Shown here: positions 10,279-16,825 of the stretch, piece by piece
Position numbering within the stretch: position 1 is the stretch's first letter
Layout: each line of letters starts with the position of its first letter
Virus record (IMG/VR): IMGVR_UViG_3300032214_001486
Span: 32,001 to 96,000 of that record
Origin: a virus
Direction: 5' to 3' (one strand)
DNA: 64,000 nt
Notes under the pieces: generated by a model
The model's input: only the letters and a program-made list of their open reading frames with translations
What the model was told of the DNA's origin: nothing
The model's database searches: none
Translations under genes and position numbers: made by a program

Positions 10279-10587
10279 ATGGATACGCTTGACGCGCTTA
10301 GGTTGATCGGAATTTACAGACTAAGCGAGTCAGGCCGCGAAGATACCGCGATACTGCGCCTTCGGGATTTAATCTTAGAGAGCGTAGAAGATCAGCGCAC
10401 CGACGCCATTGAGGGGATAGACCTAAGCCGTCTATCCCCTCCGATTTTGTTTTGGCTATTGGCTTTCCTGCCCAGCGTAGGGTTAAAACGGAATGTCATC
10501 TATGCACGGGTCCAGGGGCAGGTATTGAATTTCCCCCGCCCCCGCCGTGTCCTCCCCTTCACCCTCGCCGTCGTTCCCGCCCCCTAA
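10279..10587 (+). CDS. hypothetical protein
   Basis: GAGG RBS after the ATPase; 3' end overlaps a convergent ORF. Confidence 0.45.
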   Translation: MDTLDALRLIGIYRLSESGREDTAILRLRDLILESVEDQRTDAIEGIDLSRLSPPILFWLLAFLPSVGLKRNVIYARVQGQVLNFPRPRRVLPFTLAVVPAP

Positions 10588-11031: not shown

Positions 11032-11466
11032 ATGAGCGCCCCCGCAAAACAGCGTCGGCAAGCAGCTTTTGAGGCCCTGGTCCGCAAGCGGGTCACGCAG
11101 GCGGGCGCGGCCTTCCCCGACTTGCCGCTGCGCGTGTCGGTGTCGCTGGGCGATCCCGCGGAATTTCCAGAAGATCGTAACTACGCATATTCTGCCTGGG
11201 ACGGGGACTCAGCTTCTATCGTTTTCTCGCCAAAGGTGCTCGACGCGGACGCGGAGCAGCAGGACGCGCTATTGCGGCATGAATTGTCGCACGCGGTTTT
11301 GCAGCACGCCGGGCTCCCCCACAGCGAAAGGGACTGCGACGACGCAGCAGAGCGTATTTTTGGTGACCCTCTGTATTATGATCACCGGGACGTGCAGACC
11401 TTGAACCCCCGCGCCCCCGGCGCCCGCCGGCCGCGGCCCGCCTATCTGCCGACAGGGGAGGAATAA
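11032..11466 (+). CDS. zincin-like HExxH protein
   Basis: LLRHELSHAV..HSE. Confidence 0.65.
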   Translation: MSAPAKQRRQAAFEALVRKRVTQAGAAFPDLPLRVSVSLGDPAEFPEDRNYAYSAWDGDSASIVFSPKVLDADAEQQDALLRHELSHAVLQHAGLPHSERDCDDAAERIFGDPLYYDHRDVQTLNPRAPGARRPRPAYLPTGEE

Positions 11467-11927
11467 TGGTAATTGATCGGGATAGCGATGCGGGCGCTGC
11501 CGCGGGGAGCCTGGGCGGCCTGGGCGGCCTCGACACCCTGGGCGGCATTGAGCCTAACCTTGACTTTTTGGGCGCGGAGCCTGACAGCGCGGAGCCCCGG
11601 CCCGCGGAGCCTGTCTACGCCCTTGTGCAGCATGGGCCTTGCCCTGCCGTTGGTGTACCCGTGGGGGAGAGATACCGGAATTATCTCTTTCCGCAGGCTG
11701 TCTGCGCCGATCTGAGGCTTAGGGGGCAAGTGGGGGAGATCAAGTATGGGCACGGGCTGACCGTGGGCTGGAACGCAGCAGACACCGCGCTATATCAGGA
11801 AATTTTGGACGGCTGCCAGTATGCAGTCGCGGGGCAACGGGTTATCCTCGCCCACGTCTTAGCGTGGCTGGCTTTTTGGCTTCGATTTAGCCTGCACCAC
11901 GCTTGGCTTAGGGGGAACGGTGGGTAG
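11466..11927 (+). CDS. hypothetical protein
   Basis: GGAGG RBS; overlaps both neighbours. Confidence 0.6.
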   Translation: MVIDRDSDAGAAAGSLGGLGGLDTLGGIEPNLDFLGAEPDSAEPRPAEPVYALVQHGPCPAVGVPVGERYRNYLFPQAVCADLRLRGQVGEIKYGHGLTVGWNAADTALYQEILDGCQYAVAGQRVILAHVLAWLAFWLRFSLHHAWLRGNGG

Positions 11928-12753
11928 TGACGGCGAAAAGTTGGCCGGTTTTGACGATTATCTCAGGGACCGCGGGTTGAGCGCAAACACCCGCCGCAGC
12001 TACTTAAACGTAGCCATTCAAGCGGGGCAAGAACCAGAGGCGACGCTGCGCTGGTATACCGGCTTGCTTGCGAAACGGGCGCCCATCGGCACAGTCCAGC
12101 AGGCTCGCTCTGCGCTGGCCCGCTGGTACACCTACCTTAAACAGCCCGAGCACATCGTCGCTCTGCCCCCAGCCCGCGGCAAACAGCGGGAGCATCGCCA
12201 AGGGCTCACCGATGGTCAGTTAGGGCTATATTTATCGGAAGCAGACAAGCAAAAAGAGCCTGCGCGCACCATTCTCGCTCTACTGCCCCGGACGGGGTTG
12301 CGTATCTCAGAGATATGCCAATTGCGGTTAGATCAAGTCAAAAGTACCGAGGAAGTTCACTACTTTAGCTTCCGAGGCAAGGGGGATAAGCCGCGCGTTG
12401 TGCCGCTCGGGGCAGAAGGCTTAGCCGTGCTGCGGGCTTACCTTGACTGGCGGGCCAAGCGAAAAGCCCTCGCCGCGTCGCCCTTCCTGTTTCCCGGCCG
12501 CGGAGGCTCGCACTACCGGCCCAATACCATCCGTAGGGTCTGCGCAGATATTCAGCAGGGTTGTCCTGACCTTGATGGTCTGTCCCCTCACGTTCTGCGC
12601 CACACTTACGCCACCAGGGCCGTTGTCAACGGGGTCGATTTGGCCCGCCTCCAAAAACTTTTGGGTCACGGCTCTATCCGTACCACTGAGCGTTACTTGC
12701 ACCCGACCGTGCAAGACCTCTCGGCGGCGGTTACAAAGGTCGCGGGACTTTGA
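11920..12753 (+). CDS. XerC/D-like tyrosine recombinase
   Basis: SANTRRSY, TGLRISE, GKGDK, HVLRHTYAT, LLGH, TERY (complete R-K-H-R-H-Y set). Confidence 0.95.
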   Translation: MGSDGEKLAGFDDYLRDRGLSANTRRSYLNVAIQAGQEPEATLRWYTGLLAKRAPIGTVQQARSALARWYTYLKQPEHIVALPPARGKQREHRQGLTDGQLGLYLSEADKQKEPARTILALLPRTGLRISEICQLRLDQVKSTEEVHYFSFRGKGDKPRVVPLGAEGLAVLRAYLDWRAKRKALAASPFLFPGRGGSHYRPNTIRRVCADIQQGCPDLDGLSPHVLRHTYATRAVVNGVDLARLQKLLGHGSIRTTERYLHPTVQDLSAAVTKVAGL

Positions 12754-12768: not shown

Positions 12769-13554
12769 ATGTCAAAGGCAGAAAAGGTACGCGCTCTATT
12801 CCGCACCGCGGCTGATTTTGGGGCGACTGAGAATGAGCGGCAGGTAGCGGAACGCTTTGCGTGGGAGCTACTGCGAAAGGACGAAAGCCTAATCCAAGAA
12901 ATTGCGGCCTCTGTGTTGCAGGAGGCCCAAGATCAGGGGCGGGAGCCTCAGTGGCCCTCACCGTTGTTCTTCGACGTGTGGACCCGTACCCAGCAGGCCA
13001 AGGCGGCCCAGGCATCCGAGGCCCGCCGGCAGGAGCAGGAGCGCAAGCAAGCTGGCGCCCGCGCTCGCGCACAAGCTGCCGCTGACGCTCGCGCGGCGGG
13101 GTTGCGGGCTGCCGCGGCGGCTGCTGCTGCCTCCGCTGCCGCTGCCGCTGGGCCCCCGCCGGGTTGGGTGCCGCCGGGTCTGCCGCCGGGGCCGCCGCCG
13201 GGCCCACCACCGGGACCGCCGCCGGGTTGGGTGCCGCCGGGTTGGGCTCCGCCGGGTTGGGCCCCGCCGCCTGCTGAAAATCGGTGGGAGCGGCTGAAGA
13301 ACGTGGCCGCGGAATGGATCGGGGACACCTTAGAGGAAGTCGCGGACGGGCTCAACCTTGTCGAGCAGATCAACGAGGAAGTAAACGTCAGGATTTCCGA
13401 CACAAGCAAAACGGTGACCGTCAAAGTCACCTTCCCCGTTGAATTGGTGCGGGAAATCTACGAAGAACATGGAAATTTAGATGAATTCTCCCGGCTTGTC
13501 GGGGTGAAGATGGGCGAGGATCTGGCCCAGGCTTTCCGCGACTCGGGGTACTGA
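12769..13554 (+). CDS. DUF2786-like N-terminal protein with PPG(W) repeats
   Basis: EKVRALF..ATENERQVA..A.ELL N-terminus; Ala run and PPG repeats. Confidence 0.6.
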   Translation: MSKAEKVRALFRTAADFGATENERQVAERFAWELLRKDESLIQEIAASVLQEAQDQGREPQWPSPLFFDVWTRTQQAKAAQASEARRQEQERKQAGARARAQAAADARAAGLRAAAAAAAASAAAAAGPPPGWVPPGLPPGPPPGPPPGPPPGWVPPGWAPPGWAPPPAENRWERLKNVAAEWIGDTLEEVADGLNLVEQINEEVNVRISDTSKTVTVKVTFPVELVREIYEEHGNLDEFSRLVGVKMGEDLAQAFRDSGY

Positions 13555-13583
13555 CCAAAATGTAACCGACGTGTCATCGGGGG

Positions 13584-13937
13584 TTATGGCGGGGTGTCGC
13601 CGGTCGAGTTGACAAATTGAATGGACAAGATCGGCGTACCCGCCCCGTTGTTTTTGACCCGCATGACGATAGAGCTAATGCCCCCAAAACGTCCACAGGG
13701 GCGATACTTTGCCGTGCCAATTCTCAGCGTGACAGCCGAGCCGGGAGGCACGATGACAGAATTTGCAGTCGTAAGCGCCGTGGCGGTGCTCACAAAGCCA
13801 AAGAGGGCCGAGTTTGTACCGTCCTCGTTGTAAACAATGACGGTGTGGCAGTTGTCCGAGGGTTGTGTCCCCACGGTCGCGGTTGCCGCCCCCGTTGTGA
13901 CTTCAACCGTATCCATCAGGTTCGTACTTAAAGCCAT
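13584..13937 (-). CDS. small beta-rich protein, possible virion component
   Basis: GAGGGG RBS before ATG 13937; alternating beta pattern, VPPGSAVTL. Confidence 0.55.
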   Translation of the reverse strand: MALSTNLMDTVEVTTGAATATVGTQPSDNCHTVIVYNEDGTNSALFGFVSTATALTTANSVIVPPGSAVTLRIGTAKYRPCGRFGGISSIVMRVKNNGAGTPILSIQFVNSTGDTPP

Positions 13938-13992
13938 GTTGAGCCCTCGACGGGAGAATGATAGGCATAGCACACCCTTGGAGGCCGCCGCT

Positions 13993-14442
13993 ATGCACAA
14001 CGAAGATCAAAAAGTCGGTCAAGGCTCCGAGGGCGTTCTCGGGGCGACCCGCAAGCCAATGTATCACGGGGGACTAAAAGAGCGCAAGGGCAAGGTTTTC
14101 CCGGCTAAGACCCTGGAACAAATGCGTACCGACCTTGATCTGACCGTGGAGGACTTCGCGCGCCTGCTCGGGTTGAGCTTCATGGCGGTCTACAATTGGG
14201 AACGGGGCGGCGGCATGGTGGAGGTGTCCGACCTTCAATCCCGCATCCTGACCGCCCTTAATCACATGACCGTGGCGCACCCGGACCTGTATTGGGCCGA
14301 CGACGTGAGCAAGGCTGTGGTCAATCAGGGCGGTCTGTACGGGCTCTACAAGCTGTTGACGCACTACTACCGCTCCCTCGCCCAGCAGCAAGCCCAGCGT
14401 CGGGCCGCCCAGGCGCAAGCCGCCCTCGCGGACGCCCCGTAA
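13993..14442 (+). CDS. XRE-family HTH transcriptional regulator (start uncertain)
   Basis: MRTDLDLTVEDFARLLGLSFMAVYNWERG; GGAGG before ATG 13993. Confidence 0.8.
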   Translation: MHNEDQKVGQGSEGVLGATRKPMYHGGLKERKGKVFPAKTLEQMRTDLDLTVEDFARLLGLSFMAVYNWERGGGMVEVSDLQSRILTALNHMTVAHPDLYWADDVSKAVVNQGGLYGLYKLLTHYYRSLAQQQAQRRAAQAQAALADAP

Positions 14443-14477
14443 GCCACGTAAGCCCTTGATTTCATGGGTTTTTCGAT

Positions 14478-15196
14478 ATGATCGGGGCTTGAACGGTGCG
14501 TGCTGCCGGCGCGGTGTGCGCCGACGCTCGGGCGCTGCGTTCACACCCCGATCATCGTGTATGGCGATAATGTACCCTTATCACCACACACCAGAATAGG
14601 CTGCTGGACGCTATTCTCGCACTTTCGATCCGTGATCGGGGCTTGAACGGGGCCGCCCTGCTCAGCCGGCGTGCGCGGTGTGCTGGGCGCGGTTATGCGC
14701 TCGGGTCAAGGCCCAACGTACAGAGCGTTCAAGACCCGATCATGGTGCAATTATGCCAAAGAAGAAGCCCTCAGCCACCACGTCGGCCACCACGTCGGCC
14801 ACCACGCCAGAGAACAATCCGGGGGCGTGGGTGCTACGGGCCCCAGACTGGACCGGGGATGCGGAGGCGATCCGAGCGGACGGGTTGATCGTGGACGTGC
14901 GGGAGCGCGGGGCTCAGCTTACGCTTAAATCCCCCCTCGGGGACGTTGTACCCTTGACCCCTAAAGACGTAGCCGGGTTGGAGGCTTGGTTAGGGGGGCC
15001 TTTCGAGCCTTTGTTCCCCCCGGATATATCTACCCCCTGCTTCTACATTCCAGCGAAATACTACACGTCCTCCGCGCAGCTACGGGCCAAGTTAGATCAG
15101 CTTATGCCTGCCCCCCTTCGGGTGTGGGTAGCAGGCCGCGCCTGGGGTGCGTAGCCGGGCGTAGCCGGGTGCGTAGCGTTCAAGACCCGATCATGG
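14478..15196. repeat. five copies of an 18-bp motif (RTGATCGGGNYKTGAACG) in both orientations
   Basis: + at 14478-14495 and 14632-14649; - at 14538-14555, 14726-14743 and 15177-15194. Confidence 0.9.
14753..15154 (+). CDS. hypothetical protein flanked by 22-bp direct repeats
   Basis: MPKKKP(SATT)x3; lies between AGCGTTCAAGACCCGATCATGG copies; RBS weak. Confidence 0.55.
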   Translation: MPKKKPSATTSATTSATTPENNPGAWVLRAPDWTGDAEAIRADGLIVDVRERGAQLTLKSPLGDVVPLTPKDVAGLEAWLGGPFEPLFPPDISTPCFYIPAKYYTSSAQLRAKLDQLMPAPLRVWVAGRAWGA

Positions 15197-15248
15197 GGAA
15201 GTCAGCCAAAATGAGCCACGAAAGCCCACTTTGGCTGACCGTGCCCAT

Positions 15249-15671
15249 TCACTGACCAAAGTAGAAGCCGACCGCCGTGGTAAACGCGCCAATGAGCGCG
15301 GTGACTGCGGGGATCACAATGCTGCGTACCCGTAGCTCCGTGAGTTGGGCCCCGCGGGCTTCCCGCTGCTCGTCGAGCTTGATCCTGCGCTCCTCTAAAT
15401 CGTTCCGCCGCCGTTCCTGCTCAGCCATGCGCTCCAATGCCTCCGTTGTCCGCTCCATCAGCGGTTTGAGGCTCAGCAGATTTTCCGCGGTACGTTCCTC
15501 CGCGCTGCGGCTCGCTGCCATGCTTTCGACCACTTCGCGGACAAGGGCGGTCCACGCTTCCTCGACTGATAGCTGGTCGATATGCCCCTGCAAGAGCTTT
15601 GTTTCTTCTGGAAACGCAGGTTTCATGCGTTCCAGAATGAGCGCCACGTCCACGGCTTTCATGCGGGTCAT
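15249..15671 (-). CDS. coiled-coil protein with C-terminal TM helix (holin-like position)
   Basis: IVIPAVTALIGAFTTAVGFYFG; ATGA overlap with endolysin-like gene. Confidence 0.55.
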   Translation of the reverse strand: MTRMKAVDVALILERMKPAFPEETKLLQGHIDQLSVEEAWTALVREVVESMAASRSAEERTAENLLSLKPLMERTTEALERMAEQERRRNDLEERRIKLDEQREARGAQLTELRVRSIVIPAVTALIGAFTTAVGFYFGQ

Positions 15672-16255
15672 GCGCGCTCCCCGACAAGCAGCGTGTACGA
15701 AAACGATTTCCAGCCTCGCTTGGCTGTTTGTTGCCGGCAAAGACTCAGGAAGTGTTCAAATTCCGCGTCCTGCGCCCACACTTGGCAGCCGGCTGACCAT
15801 TTATCGACGTTGGTGGAATTCGTACCCGCCCGGTGAAGGTTAATGCCGAATAGACCTGTCTCTGTTTGTCTCGCGTTCATATCGTGCTGGTTGTCTTTGT
15901 CGGCGTCCCGGTATACCGTCACGGGTTTGACCTGTACCAAAGCTGGCTTTTCGCCCTTGTGTAGACCCAATTGCCAGCAGCCCCGATACTGACCTTCCTT
16001 TAGAATGGCGGTCCCCGCAACCCGTCCAGGGTTCTGTAGCCAGAACGTGCCGGGGTCCGTCGTGATGGTGTAACGGTAGACCTTCCACGTCCCGCTGTCA
16101 TCGCGGTATACTACATAGCAGCAGTCGTCAAACTTGTTTGGCTCCCCGTTCTCTTTGCGGAAACCGACGATATTCAAGTCCCAATTTCCGTTGCGGAACG
16201 CCGTGAAACCTTCACGTTCGACACGGGCTAACACTTGCTCGGCTGTCAAGGGCAT
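15668..16255 (-). CDS. putative endolysin (L,D-transpeptidase-like Cys fold)
   Basis: LNIVGFR..FDD..TTDPG..GQY..FGINLHRA..WSAGCQV (H..SxGC); GAGG RBS before ATG 16255. Confidence 0.7.
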   Translation of the reverse strand: MPLTAEQVLARVEREGFTAFRNGNWDLNIVGFRKENGEPNKFDDCCYVVYRDDSGTWKVYRYTITTDPGTFWLQNPGRVAGTAILKEGQYRGCWQLGLHKGEKPALVQVKPVTVYRDADKDNQHDMNARQTETGLFGINLHRAGTNSTNVDKWSAGCQVWAQDAEFEHFLSLCRQQTAKRGWKSFSYTLLVGERA

Positions 16256-16342
16256 ATTACACCTCGCCTGATGGGGTTGTGACGCCCGAGAGTGTACCCC
16301 AAATGCTCGCCCCCAGGCAAGGGCGGCAGAGGCGCGAGGACA

Positions 16343-16825
16343 ATGAACATGACCACGGTATTTTGGGTCGCTTTGATTATCGGCGTCACCGCGGGCGGCG
16401 CGACCGGCTTTAGCGTAGGCAAGCACCGCGGGAAGGTGGAGGCAGAAGCCGATCTTGCAGCGGCGACTGCAAACGCAGCGCAGATTGCCAAGGCGGTTGA
16501 AGGCAATACACTGGCAATTGCGGGGCTCACAGAAGCGGCGCAGAAGCCCGTCGTGCTCGACGCGGAAACGCGGGCGGCCCTTGCATCGGACGTTCCTACG
16601 GGCTGCCGGGATGAAAAAAGCAGCCTCAGCGCCGCTTGTCTCACCGCTCAATGCTGGCGTTTTCAGCAGGGCAACGGCGGTCGGTCAGACGCAAAGACGT
16701 GTGCAGAATTGGCCGATGACGCCCGTATTCATGCCTGGGTCCAGCTTTGCGCGCAGCCTGACCGGGCGGGCCCCGATTGGGATTGTGTCGCCGCGGGCAT
16801 AAAAGCAGCGCGGGAACAGGACTAA
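16343..16825 (+). CDS. N-terminally anchored membrane protein, spanin-like
   Basis: N-terminal TM helix, Ala-rich helix, six C-terminal Cys; divergent from endolysin-like gene. Confidence 0.45.
   Translation: MNMTTVFWVALIIGVTAGGATGFSVGKHRGKVEAEADLAAATANAAQIAKAVEGNTLAIAGLTEAAQKPVVLDAETRAALASDVPTGCRDEKSSLSAACLTAQCWRFQQGNGGRSDAKTCAELADDARIHAWVQLCAQPDRAGPDWDCVAAGIKAAREQD

Follow-up and report, generated by a model that had tools for sequence, protein, structure and literature searches.

What does the cluster of inverted repeats upstream of a small conserved gene do in the phage of IMG/VR virus record IMGVR_UViG_3300032214_001486, and which part of the cluster matters? The record (104,974 bp, 60% GC, estimated to be 85% complete) comes from a large tailed phage that encodes DNA polymerase I, SNF2 helicases, an SbcC-like protein, methyltransferases and an endolysin-like gene; the majority of its proteins belong to no known family. 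The stretch analyzed, called the window below, consists of bases 32001-96000 of the record (64,000 nt), and positions are those of the window unless another record is named. The repeat locus is a 310-nt non-coding gap, without a credible open reading frame (ORF), between the gene for an XRE-type helix-turn-helix protein and a small ORF, P0001. A first-pass annotation made from the sequence alone had stressed two large hairpins at this place and offered a replication origin, a recombinase or resolution site, a packaging site or a structured RNA as explanations. As judged by sequence comparison, the conserved object is a 112-nt unit lying between the two hairpins. Most likely, although this is not proven, it serves the phage's Xer-like recombinase as a DNA site for protein assembly.

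The repeat itself is a 17-nt arm, TGATCGGG-NNN-TGAACG, built from the hexamers TGATCG and TGAACG placed 11 nt apart. Five copies are found within 715 bp and none elsewhere in the 104,974-bp record. When up to three mismatches are allowed, the arm TGATCGGGGCTTGAACG has five matches against 0.19 expected, a number reached in 0/100 shuffles; the degenerate pattern TGAWCG-N5-TGAWCG also matches these five positions only in the whole record. The five arms are as follows.

14479..14495, plus strand: arm a1, left arm of hairpin 1; an extra, clade-specific copy, also present in the related contig L038 (see below)
14538..14554, minus strand: arm a2', right arm of hairpin 1 and 5' arm (P1) of the 112-nt unit
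14633..14649, plus strand: arm a3, left arm of hairpin 2 and 3' arm (P1) of the 112-nt unit
14726..14742, minus strand: arm a4', right arm of hairpin 2
15177..15193, minus strand: arm a5', a lone arm directly 3' of the P0001 stop codon

The first-pass annotation had described two inverted pairs and a fifth copy, and all five are where it placed them. Also as it described, TTTCGAT stands directly 5' of arms a1 and a3, and the motifs GCGCGGTGTGC (14509 and 14673) and CGCTCGGG are common to both hairpin interiors, indicating that hairpins 1 and 2 are duplicates of each other. Hairpin 1 (14478-14555), with the annotated inner stem CGGCGC-GGTGT-GCGCCG, folds at -49.1 kcal/mol (z -3.5), and hairpin 2 (14630-14746) at -66.8 kcal/mol (z -3.8). 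The a4' and a5' copies form an exact 22-nt direct repeat (14724-14745 and 15175-15196) around P0001.

Which of these features are under selection can be read from L038, a metagenome contig whose recombinase is 83% identical to that of the window at the protein level and which has the same gene order, the five arms including the lone one, and the palindrome described below. At fourfold-degenerate sites of three flanking genes the two sequences are only 48% identical, as against 70/70 identical outer arm positions and 34/35 identical positions in the palindrome; all eight arm changes are confined to the central three bases. By this measure purifying selection on the region is very strong. The hairpin bodies have changed. 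L038 has lost 21 nt from the apex of hairpin 1, through a deletion between a1 and a2'; since 21 bp make two helical turns, these arms keep facing the same side of the helix. Inside hairpin 2 there are 19 substitutions, and no fold is conserved (z -0.4 and +0.4, column shuffles). It is thus the arms and the palindrome on which selection acts, and not the hairpin bodies. The a4' and a5' copies are identical to each other in L038 too (over 24 nt) and differ from the window copies at two positions; being identical within genomes and different between them, they evolve in concert. Synteny with L038 stops right after a5', and identity falls after 15192.

A recombinase-family profile search of IMG/VR retrieved phages with 41-52% identical enzymes. 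Three of the retrieved lineages carry the conserved part of the locus, namely L044 (record G001), L043/L049 (G004/G005) and L046/L047; the independent lineages in which it is found number only four. Its components in the window are listed here.

14538..14649, unstranded: the 112-nt unit, made up of a2', the P2 palindrome, a 41-nt spacer and a3; single copy per genome
14557..14591, unstranded: P2, a 14-7-14 palindrome (GTGTATGGCGATAA / TGTACCC / TTATCACCACACAC); candidate dif/lox-like core
14593..14617, unstranded: mini-hairpin AGAATAG..CTATTCT, within the unit's spacer; not conserved

The span from CGTTCA to TGAACG is exactly 112 nt in the window, L038, L044/L122, L123/L124 and L046/L047, and the five distinct unit sequences align gap-free (MAFFT). 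P1, formed by the two outer arms, occupies unit positions 1-18 with 95-112, its arm sites being 95 bp apart from centre to centre; P2 occupies positions 20-33 with 41-54 and lies at 20-54 in all eight sequences. The pair cells of P1 and P2 are 88.7% paired, against 30-40% with slid partners, and 16 pairs show changes on both sides, which 0/500 shuffles reach; covariation in related genomes, which had been put forward as a check on the locus, is thus present. A covariance model (R1) finds one copy per genome. The spacer (positions 55-95) has a near-neutral sequence, with 20/41 identities between L044 and L123, and is 41 nt long in every lineage; being free in sequence but constant in length, it points to geometry rather than to sequence or RNA pairing. 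The same recombinase family is encoded 1.8-5.2 kb from the unit in all four lineages, whose recombinases are ~45% identical and whose GC contents range from 60 to 73%.

In the other clades only the arm pair bounding the unit is found. By this comparison a1, a4', a5', the XRE gene and P0001 are clade-specific additions to a plain unit, and so are the hairpins to which the first-pass annotation had given most weight. The two smaller hairpins that it noticed between the arm pairs both exist. One of them, GATAA..TTATC, turns out to be the centre of the longer P2 palindrome; the other, AGAATAG..CTATTCT, loses its stem in L038, where the loop GCTGCTGG becomes its reverse complement, CCAGCAGC.

The most complete relative with a plain 112-nt unit is G001, the record behind L044 (72,988 bp; CheckV completeness only 53%), whose ends overlap by ~125 nt, indicating a circular assembly; its unit is at 10341-10452. 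In L046, ACGCGCCAGAAC is directly repeated just left of the unit (L046:10100-10135) and GAACGCGCG is present on both flanks; these repeats are possible extra sites in that clade.

The arms of P2 match at 12/14 positions in the window and at 13/14 in L038, on either side of the asymmetric spacer TGTACCC, which is also the loop (14571-14577). Its GC content is 46% (35% in the inner 17-mer, 14566-14582), compared with 60% for the genome, and it is the lowest-GC spot locally. The pattern ATAA-N6-8-TTAT occurs once per genome, at P2. Between clades the centre, CGATAA-TGTAYCC-TTATC (unit positions 29-45), keeps 18/19 bases, reverse-complemented in place; with one change, the inner 17-mer is found once each in G001, G004 and G005, again reverse-complemented in place. 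The right arm of P2 reads TTATCACCACA in the window and, once the core is turned to the window orientation, TTATCGGAA in L044 (TTATCGTAAG as printed). GATAAT faces right, towards P0001, in the window and L038; it faces left, towards a 117-aa gene, in L044, in L123 and, as GCTAAT, in L046.

Flipped loops on kept stems were recorded between relatives, at the P2 loop (14571-14577 versus L044:10216-10222) and at the mini-hairpin loop (14600-14610 versus L038). These loop inversions suggest that the repeats fold back during replication; small loop inversions of such a kind are known from chloroplast hairpins.

An in-place flip of the P2 centre is a change that a site on double-stranded DNA tolerates and that an RNA loop would not. 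Together with the fixed-length, free-sequence spacer, the lack of a clear G.U excess among non-Watson-Crick pairs (~6 G.U versus 3 A.C, no clear strand bias) and the lack of a promoter, a U-tract or an Rfam match (see below), it argues for a double-stranded DNA site. The covariation is not taken as proof of an RNA, since two inverted sites of one protein covary like a stem. We consider it more likely than not that the element acts as DNA.

A candidate enzyme for such a site is encoded upstream of the locus.

11920..12753, plus strand: Xer-like simple tyrosine recombinase, 277 aa; Phage_integrase match 1.6e-29

This is the only tyrosine recombinase of the record (single PF00589 match). Its NCBIfam scores are 129 bits for XerC, 118 for XerA and 113 for XerD, all under the equivalog cut-offs; its nearest solved structures are XerA and XerD, and it weakly matches the Fim-type invertase model. 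As the open frame is at most 296 aa long, it has no room for an arm-binding domain. The family comprises more than 200 proteins at E<1e-30, some of them on contigs of 60-170 kb.

P2 resembles the sites used by XerCD (dif), XerA (dif), XerH (difH) and Cre (loxP) in having two inverted arms, within the ~11-14 bp range of such sites, around a short asymmetric spacer of 6-8 bp. It is also non-coding and below genome GC, the criteria of PMC2731167, and here too the replicon encodes a simple recombinase that lacks an arm-binding domain. Its inner arm bases ATAA/TTAT and centre TGTA(T) agree with many of the dif sequences that PMC2731167 tabulates for bacteria. Archaeal XerA dif sites have inverted repeats on their flanks, as P2 has, and the authors of that work suggested that the repeats bind a partner (PMC2958812). 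The canonical dif layout (11+6+11, XerD arm TTATGTnAAnT) is not reproduced, agreement being restricted to the inner ATAA/TTAT and TGTA: the arms of P2 are 14 bp long and nearly symmetric, and P2 sits within a 112-bp unit of fixed length whose flanking arms covary. As to the terminal position of dif, cumulative GC skew peaks locally and weakly at 46-47 kb in this genome, and the site in circular G001 is at no extreme.

Given the dif/lox-like core, the sole Xer-like recombinase and the presence of the same recombinase family in every lineage with the unit, the recombinase or resolution site fits best among the options listed in the first-pass annotation; structured RNA and origin remain as rivals and nothing supports packaging. 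We read the locus, tentatively, as a double-stranded DNA site of fixed geometry, with accessory arms around a dif/lox-like core, that is used by the only tyrosine recombinase of the phage. The recombinase would bind both P2 arms and exchange strands across the 7-bp asymmetric spacer, while an accessory protein would bind the flanking arms and hold the DNA in a defined wrap or loop; the outcome would be dimer or concatemer resolution, or phage integration. In this clade a1, a4' and a5' give rise to the two hairpin-like inverted pairs and bracket one small gene. We infer which proteins bind, and that recombination occurs here at all. Lambda attP and cer/psi offer parallels to the locus, whose conserved non-coding stretch measures ~260-300 bp, with repeated asymmetric sites in both orientations and on both sides of the core, and with a spacing that appears to matter. 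However, the lambda arm sites are read by an N-terminal domain of the integrase, which the 277-aa enzyme lacks, and the accessory sequences of cer/psi are one-sided and bound by host proteins.

Several observations weigh against a recombination site. The unit tracks the 117-aa gene, present in 4/4 lineages with the unit and in 0/3 without, better than it tracks the recombinase, and the recombinase-family members L042, L045 and L048 have no unit in the DNA examined (incomplete records). Unlike dif and lox sites, the unit is 1.8-5.2 kb away from the recombinase gene, with other genes in between, and the spacer of P2 is 7 bp long versus 6 bp in canonical dif. Palindromes of similar size are not rare in the genome (~7, versus ~3.5 in shuffles, overlapping hits counted), the others looking like terminators. 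The recombinase has no domain for binding the arms. Finally, P2 has its GATAAT half turned towards the adjacent downstream gene in each clade, which fits a promoter equally well.

This last feature is central to a reading of the unit as a transcription-control region, an unlikely but quite conceivable alternative in which P2 would be an operator overlapping the -10-like GATAAT (or GCTAAT) and the arms would be distal operator half-sites bridged into a 95-bp repression loop. The unit lies 70-150 nt upstream of the start of the 117-aa gene, except where the XRE gene is inserted, and the XRE protein encoded next to the locus could regulate the small ORF in this clade. The constant length and free sequence of the spacer suit looping, and the two hexamers in each arm are one helical turn apart. 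The gal OE/OI (~113 bp) and lac O1/O3 (92 bp) pairs likewise enclose a low-GC promoter-like segment between two related sites (~95 bp apart in the unit), and in them also spacer length matters and sequence does not. However, each arm of the unit is asymmetric, a mirror of its partner and not itself a palindrome. No -35 element is conserved, and a sigma-70 scan gave no promoter. A regulator common to the clades is also missing, as no XRE or P0001 homologue was detected in the fetched flanks of the plain-unit clades L044/L046 (tblastn, E<=1e-3); and exact constancy of length, without even a 10-11 bp change, is stricter than looping requires. A structured RNA, be it a small RNA of ~112 nt or a cis-regulatory leader with P1 as closing stem and P2 as hairpin, appears improbable, strongly as P1 and P2 covary and well as the hairpins fold relative to shuffles, since inverted protein sites would give the same covariation. 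The near-identity of a1 with a3 and of a2' with a4' creates a four-segment attenuator topology, in which alternative pairings (a1:a2' plus a3:a4' versus a2':a3) could gate translation of the small ORF in this clade. Nested and side-by-side folds are iso-energetic at ~-135 kcal/mol, and hairpin 2 ends 9 nt before the P0001 start codon and covers part of GGTG. These features have to be set against the unstructured interior of hairpin 2, the reverse-complemented but unmoved P2 loop and the constant length of a drifting spacer. Wobble pairs favour neither strand, and the slightly favoured strand in G001 is not the one that carries the two flanking genes. Nor is there a promoter or a U-tract terminator around the unit. 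A search of Rfam 15 gave no match at E<=1 over window positions 13500-16500, and in the relatives' loci its sole match was unrelated (E 0.53, elsewhere in L123).

That the locus is an origin of replication or a site of priming, with the arms binding an initiator or primase and low-GC P2 acting as unwinding element, is decidedly improbable. The unit is single-copy, its P2 has the lowest GC locally, and a gene next to it encodes an SNF2 helicase in G001 and a Dam methylase in L046. In enterobacterial oriC, conserved blocks are separated by spacers fixed in length and free in sequence, an arrangement that the unit shares, and the weak skew maximum at 46-47 kb would also fit. Yet no array of direct iterons and no initiator gene were identified, and transcription converges on the locus in this genome, which suits a terminus instead; in circular G001 the unit lies inside a minus-strand gene block, away from skew extremes and strand switch. 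The first-pass annotation had placed the locus at a strand switch; the convergent switch itself is at 15155-15248, and the G001 position shows that the link fails in relatives. Very unlikely, in our estimate, is a role of the arms themselves as crossover sites (shufflon, pdif module or inverton-like) at which the recombinase deletes or inserts the small ORF between a4' and a5', or inverts segments. P0001 does lie between identical direct arms (22 nt in the window, 24 nt in L038) that changed jointly at two positions, L038 synteny breaks immediately after a5', and five sites of mixed orientation are found near a tyrosine recombinase with a weak Fim-type invertase match. But within an arm there is no dyad around a 6-8 bp spacer, the arms are 42-78 bp apart, which is tight for synapsis, and the arrangement is identical in 8/8 sequences (five lineages or samples), neither an inverted nor a deleted form being seen. 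The R-box consensus of attC is also violated, the conserved hexamer being on the wrong side of the stem. It is also improbable that the 112-bp unit belongs to a class of phage cis elements not described before, self-contained and with covarying inverted arms that clamp a dif-like core in a fixed geometry; such arms would be secondary recombination points, and arm copies would spread and capture genes, as with P0001 between a4' and a5', giving a small cassette system driven by an Xer-like enzyme in large uncultured high-GC phages.

Other known classes of element were considered and rejected. Integron attC sites share with the hairpins imperfect inverted repeats with a variable centre, a position beside a gene and proximity to a tyrosine recombinase. 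However, CTTGAAC and GTTCAAG match R'' (RYYYAAC) and R' (GTTRRRY) at 5/7 positions each, at the inner end of the stem and not the outer; the enzyme is Xer-sized (277 aa) and scores 55 bits with the integron-integrase model versus 129 with XerC; and the gene here is followed by a lone arm, not by a full hairpin. An inverton or shufflon is contradicted by the lack of any whole-segment inversion, P2 being at the same position in 8/8 sequences (a small sample). A miniature inverted-repeat transposable element or transposon remnant is contradicted by the confinement of all copies to one locus, by outer arms conserved at 70/70 positions where neutral identity is 48%, and by the syntenic position across clades. 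An iteron-type origin was discarded because the arms are in inverted pairs and no initiator was identified; neither ParA nor ParB was found, which also removes a phage-plasmid with partition genes. A P1-pac-like GATC cluster was set aside, GATC density at the locus not being exceptional, and no terminase match (phrog_2, PF03237) was found nearby. The frame across hairpin 1 is open in both genomes, but a leader ORF there would have no ribosome-binding site, and conservation is at the nucleotide level. For a telomere-resolution site the enzyme is too small and the centre of the palindrome is asymmetric. None of hairpin 1, hairpin 2, P2 or the unit is followed by a T-run on either strand, as an intrinsic terminator would be. 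A clear intrinsic terminator at 10409-10443 (a 14-bp stem, then GATTTTGTTTTGG) shows that the host uses U-tract terminators, a tract that the hairpins of the locus do not have.

Database searches returned few relatives. No close relative was found among GenBank phages by DNA search, and no cultured relatives were found; IMG/VR yielded nothing by arm pattern, by core 17-mer or with single-query XRE, endolysin-like or recombinase proteins (two core-pattern matches, in AT-rich phages, were due to chance), and GTDB genomes yielded nothing by hairpin pattern or XRE profile. No tRNA or transfer-messenger RNA genes were found.

The genes around the locus are arranged in the order recombinase (plus), 261-aa ORF (plus), terminator, 117-aa gene (minus), XRE gene (plus), locus, P0001 (plus), with minus-strand genes resuming from 15249 onward. 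As the minus-strand gene separates the recombinase block from the XRE gene, the latter and P0001 form a plus-strand island.

13584..13937, minus strand: family-less gene, 117 aa; a homologue adjoins the 112-nt unit wherever the unit occurs
13993..14442, plus strand: XRE-type helix-turn-helix protein, 149 aa; HTH_3 match; immediately upstream of the locus
14753..15154, plus strand: P0001, conserved small ORF, 133 aa; bracketed by a4' and a5'

Homologues of the 117-aa gene, 31-51% identical, are found beside the unit in L044, L046 and L047 and are absent from L042, L045 and L048, which also lack the unit (tblastn; incomplete records). The protein has no Pfam match, and a terminator at 13566-13580 accompanies its gene. 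The XRE gene starts at 13993, homologues beginning MHNEDQK, and not at 13837. The fold of its product weakly resembles those of C-proteins, antitoxins and Aca2, the model having a predicted local distance difference test score (pLDDT) of 63 and generic helix-turn-helix matches only. P0001 has homologues of 65-97% identity, no Pfam, PHROG or Atlas match and a poor structure model (pLDDT 57). The homologue clusters of XRE, P0001 and recombinase have identical longest contigs (108,360 and 38,506 nt), so that the homologues probably sit on the same two ENA contigs and stability of the module probably extends to four sub-lineages or more.

At the end of each of the two plus-strand genes the stop-codon region is repeated in short tandem units, CGTAAGCC being present twice at 14438-14454 and a GCGTAGCCGG-like sequence three times at 15145-15177. 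The first-pass annotation had listed the former tandem as part of the structured region; it is real, but what it duplicates is the upstream gene's stop-codon region, and L038 does not have it. The terminal duplication in the window gives P0001 an earlier stop than in L038. Directly after its lone arm L038 carries a thaumatin-family gene (L038:3446-3883, plus strand; Pfam 7.7e-20) with an apparent signal-peptide-like start, at a place occupied by minus-strand genes in the window; to our knowledge it is unusual for a phage to encode a thaumatin-like protein. A 153-aa ORF (11466-11927, plus strand) overlaps the start of the recombinase gene by 8 nt. It is kept in L038 and, weakly (35%), in L042, has no family match and nothing similar in the protein Atlas, and could be a partner that assists the recombinase.

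Xer-like recombinases without a known target are numerous in large uncultured phages, and a single-copy element of fixed length with a dif-like core provides a concrete, testable candidate for such a target. We know of no description, for simple recombinases, of an architecture in which a core is combined with phased accessory arms. Should the element instead be an RNA or an origin, it would still constitute a new family of conserved elements and a possible marker for this group of phages.

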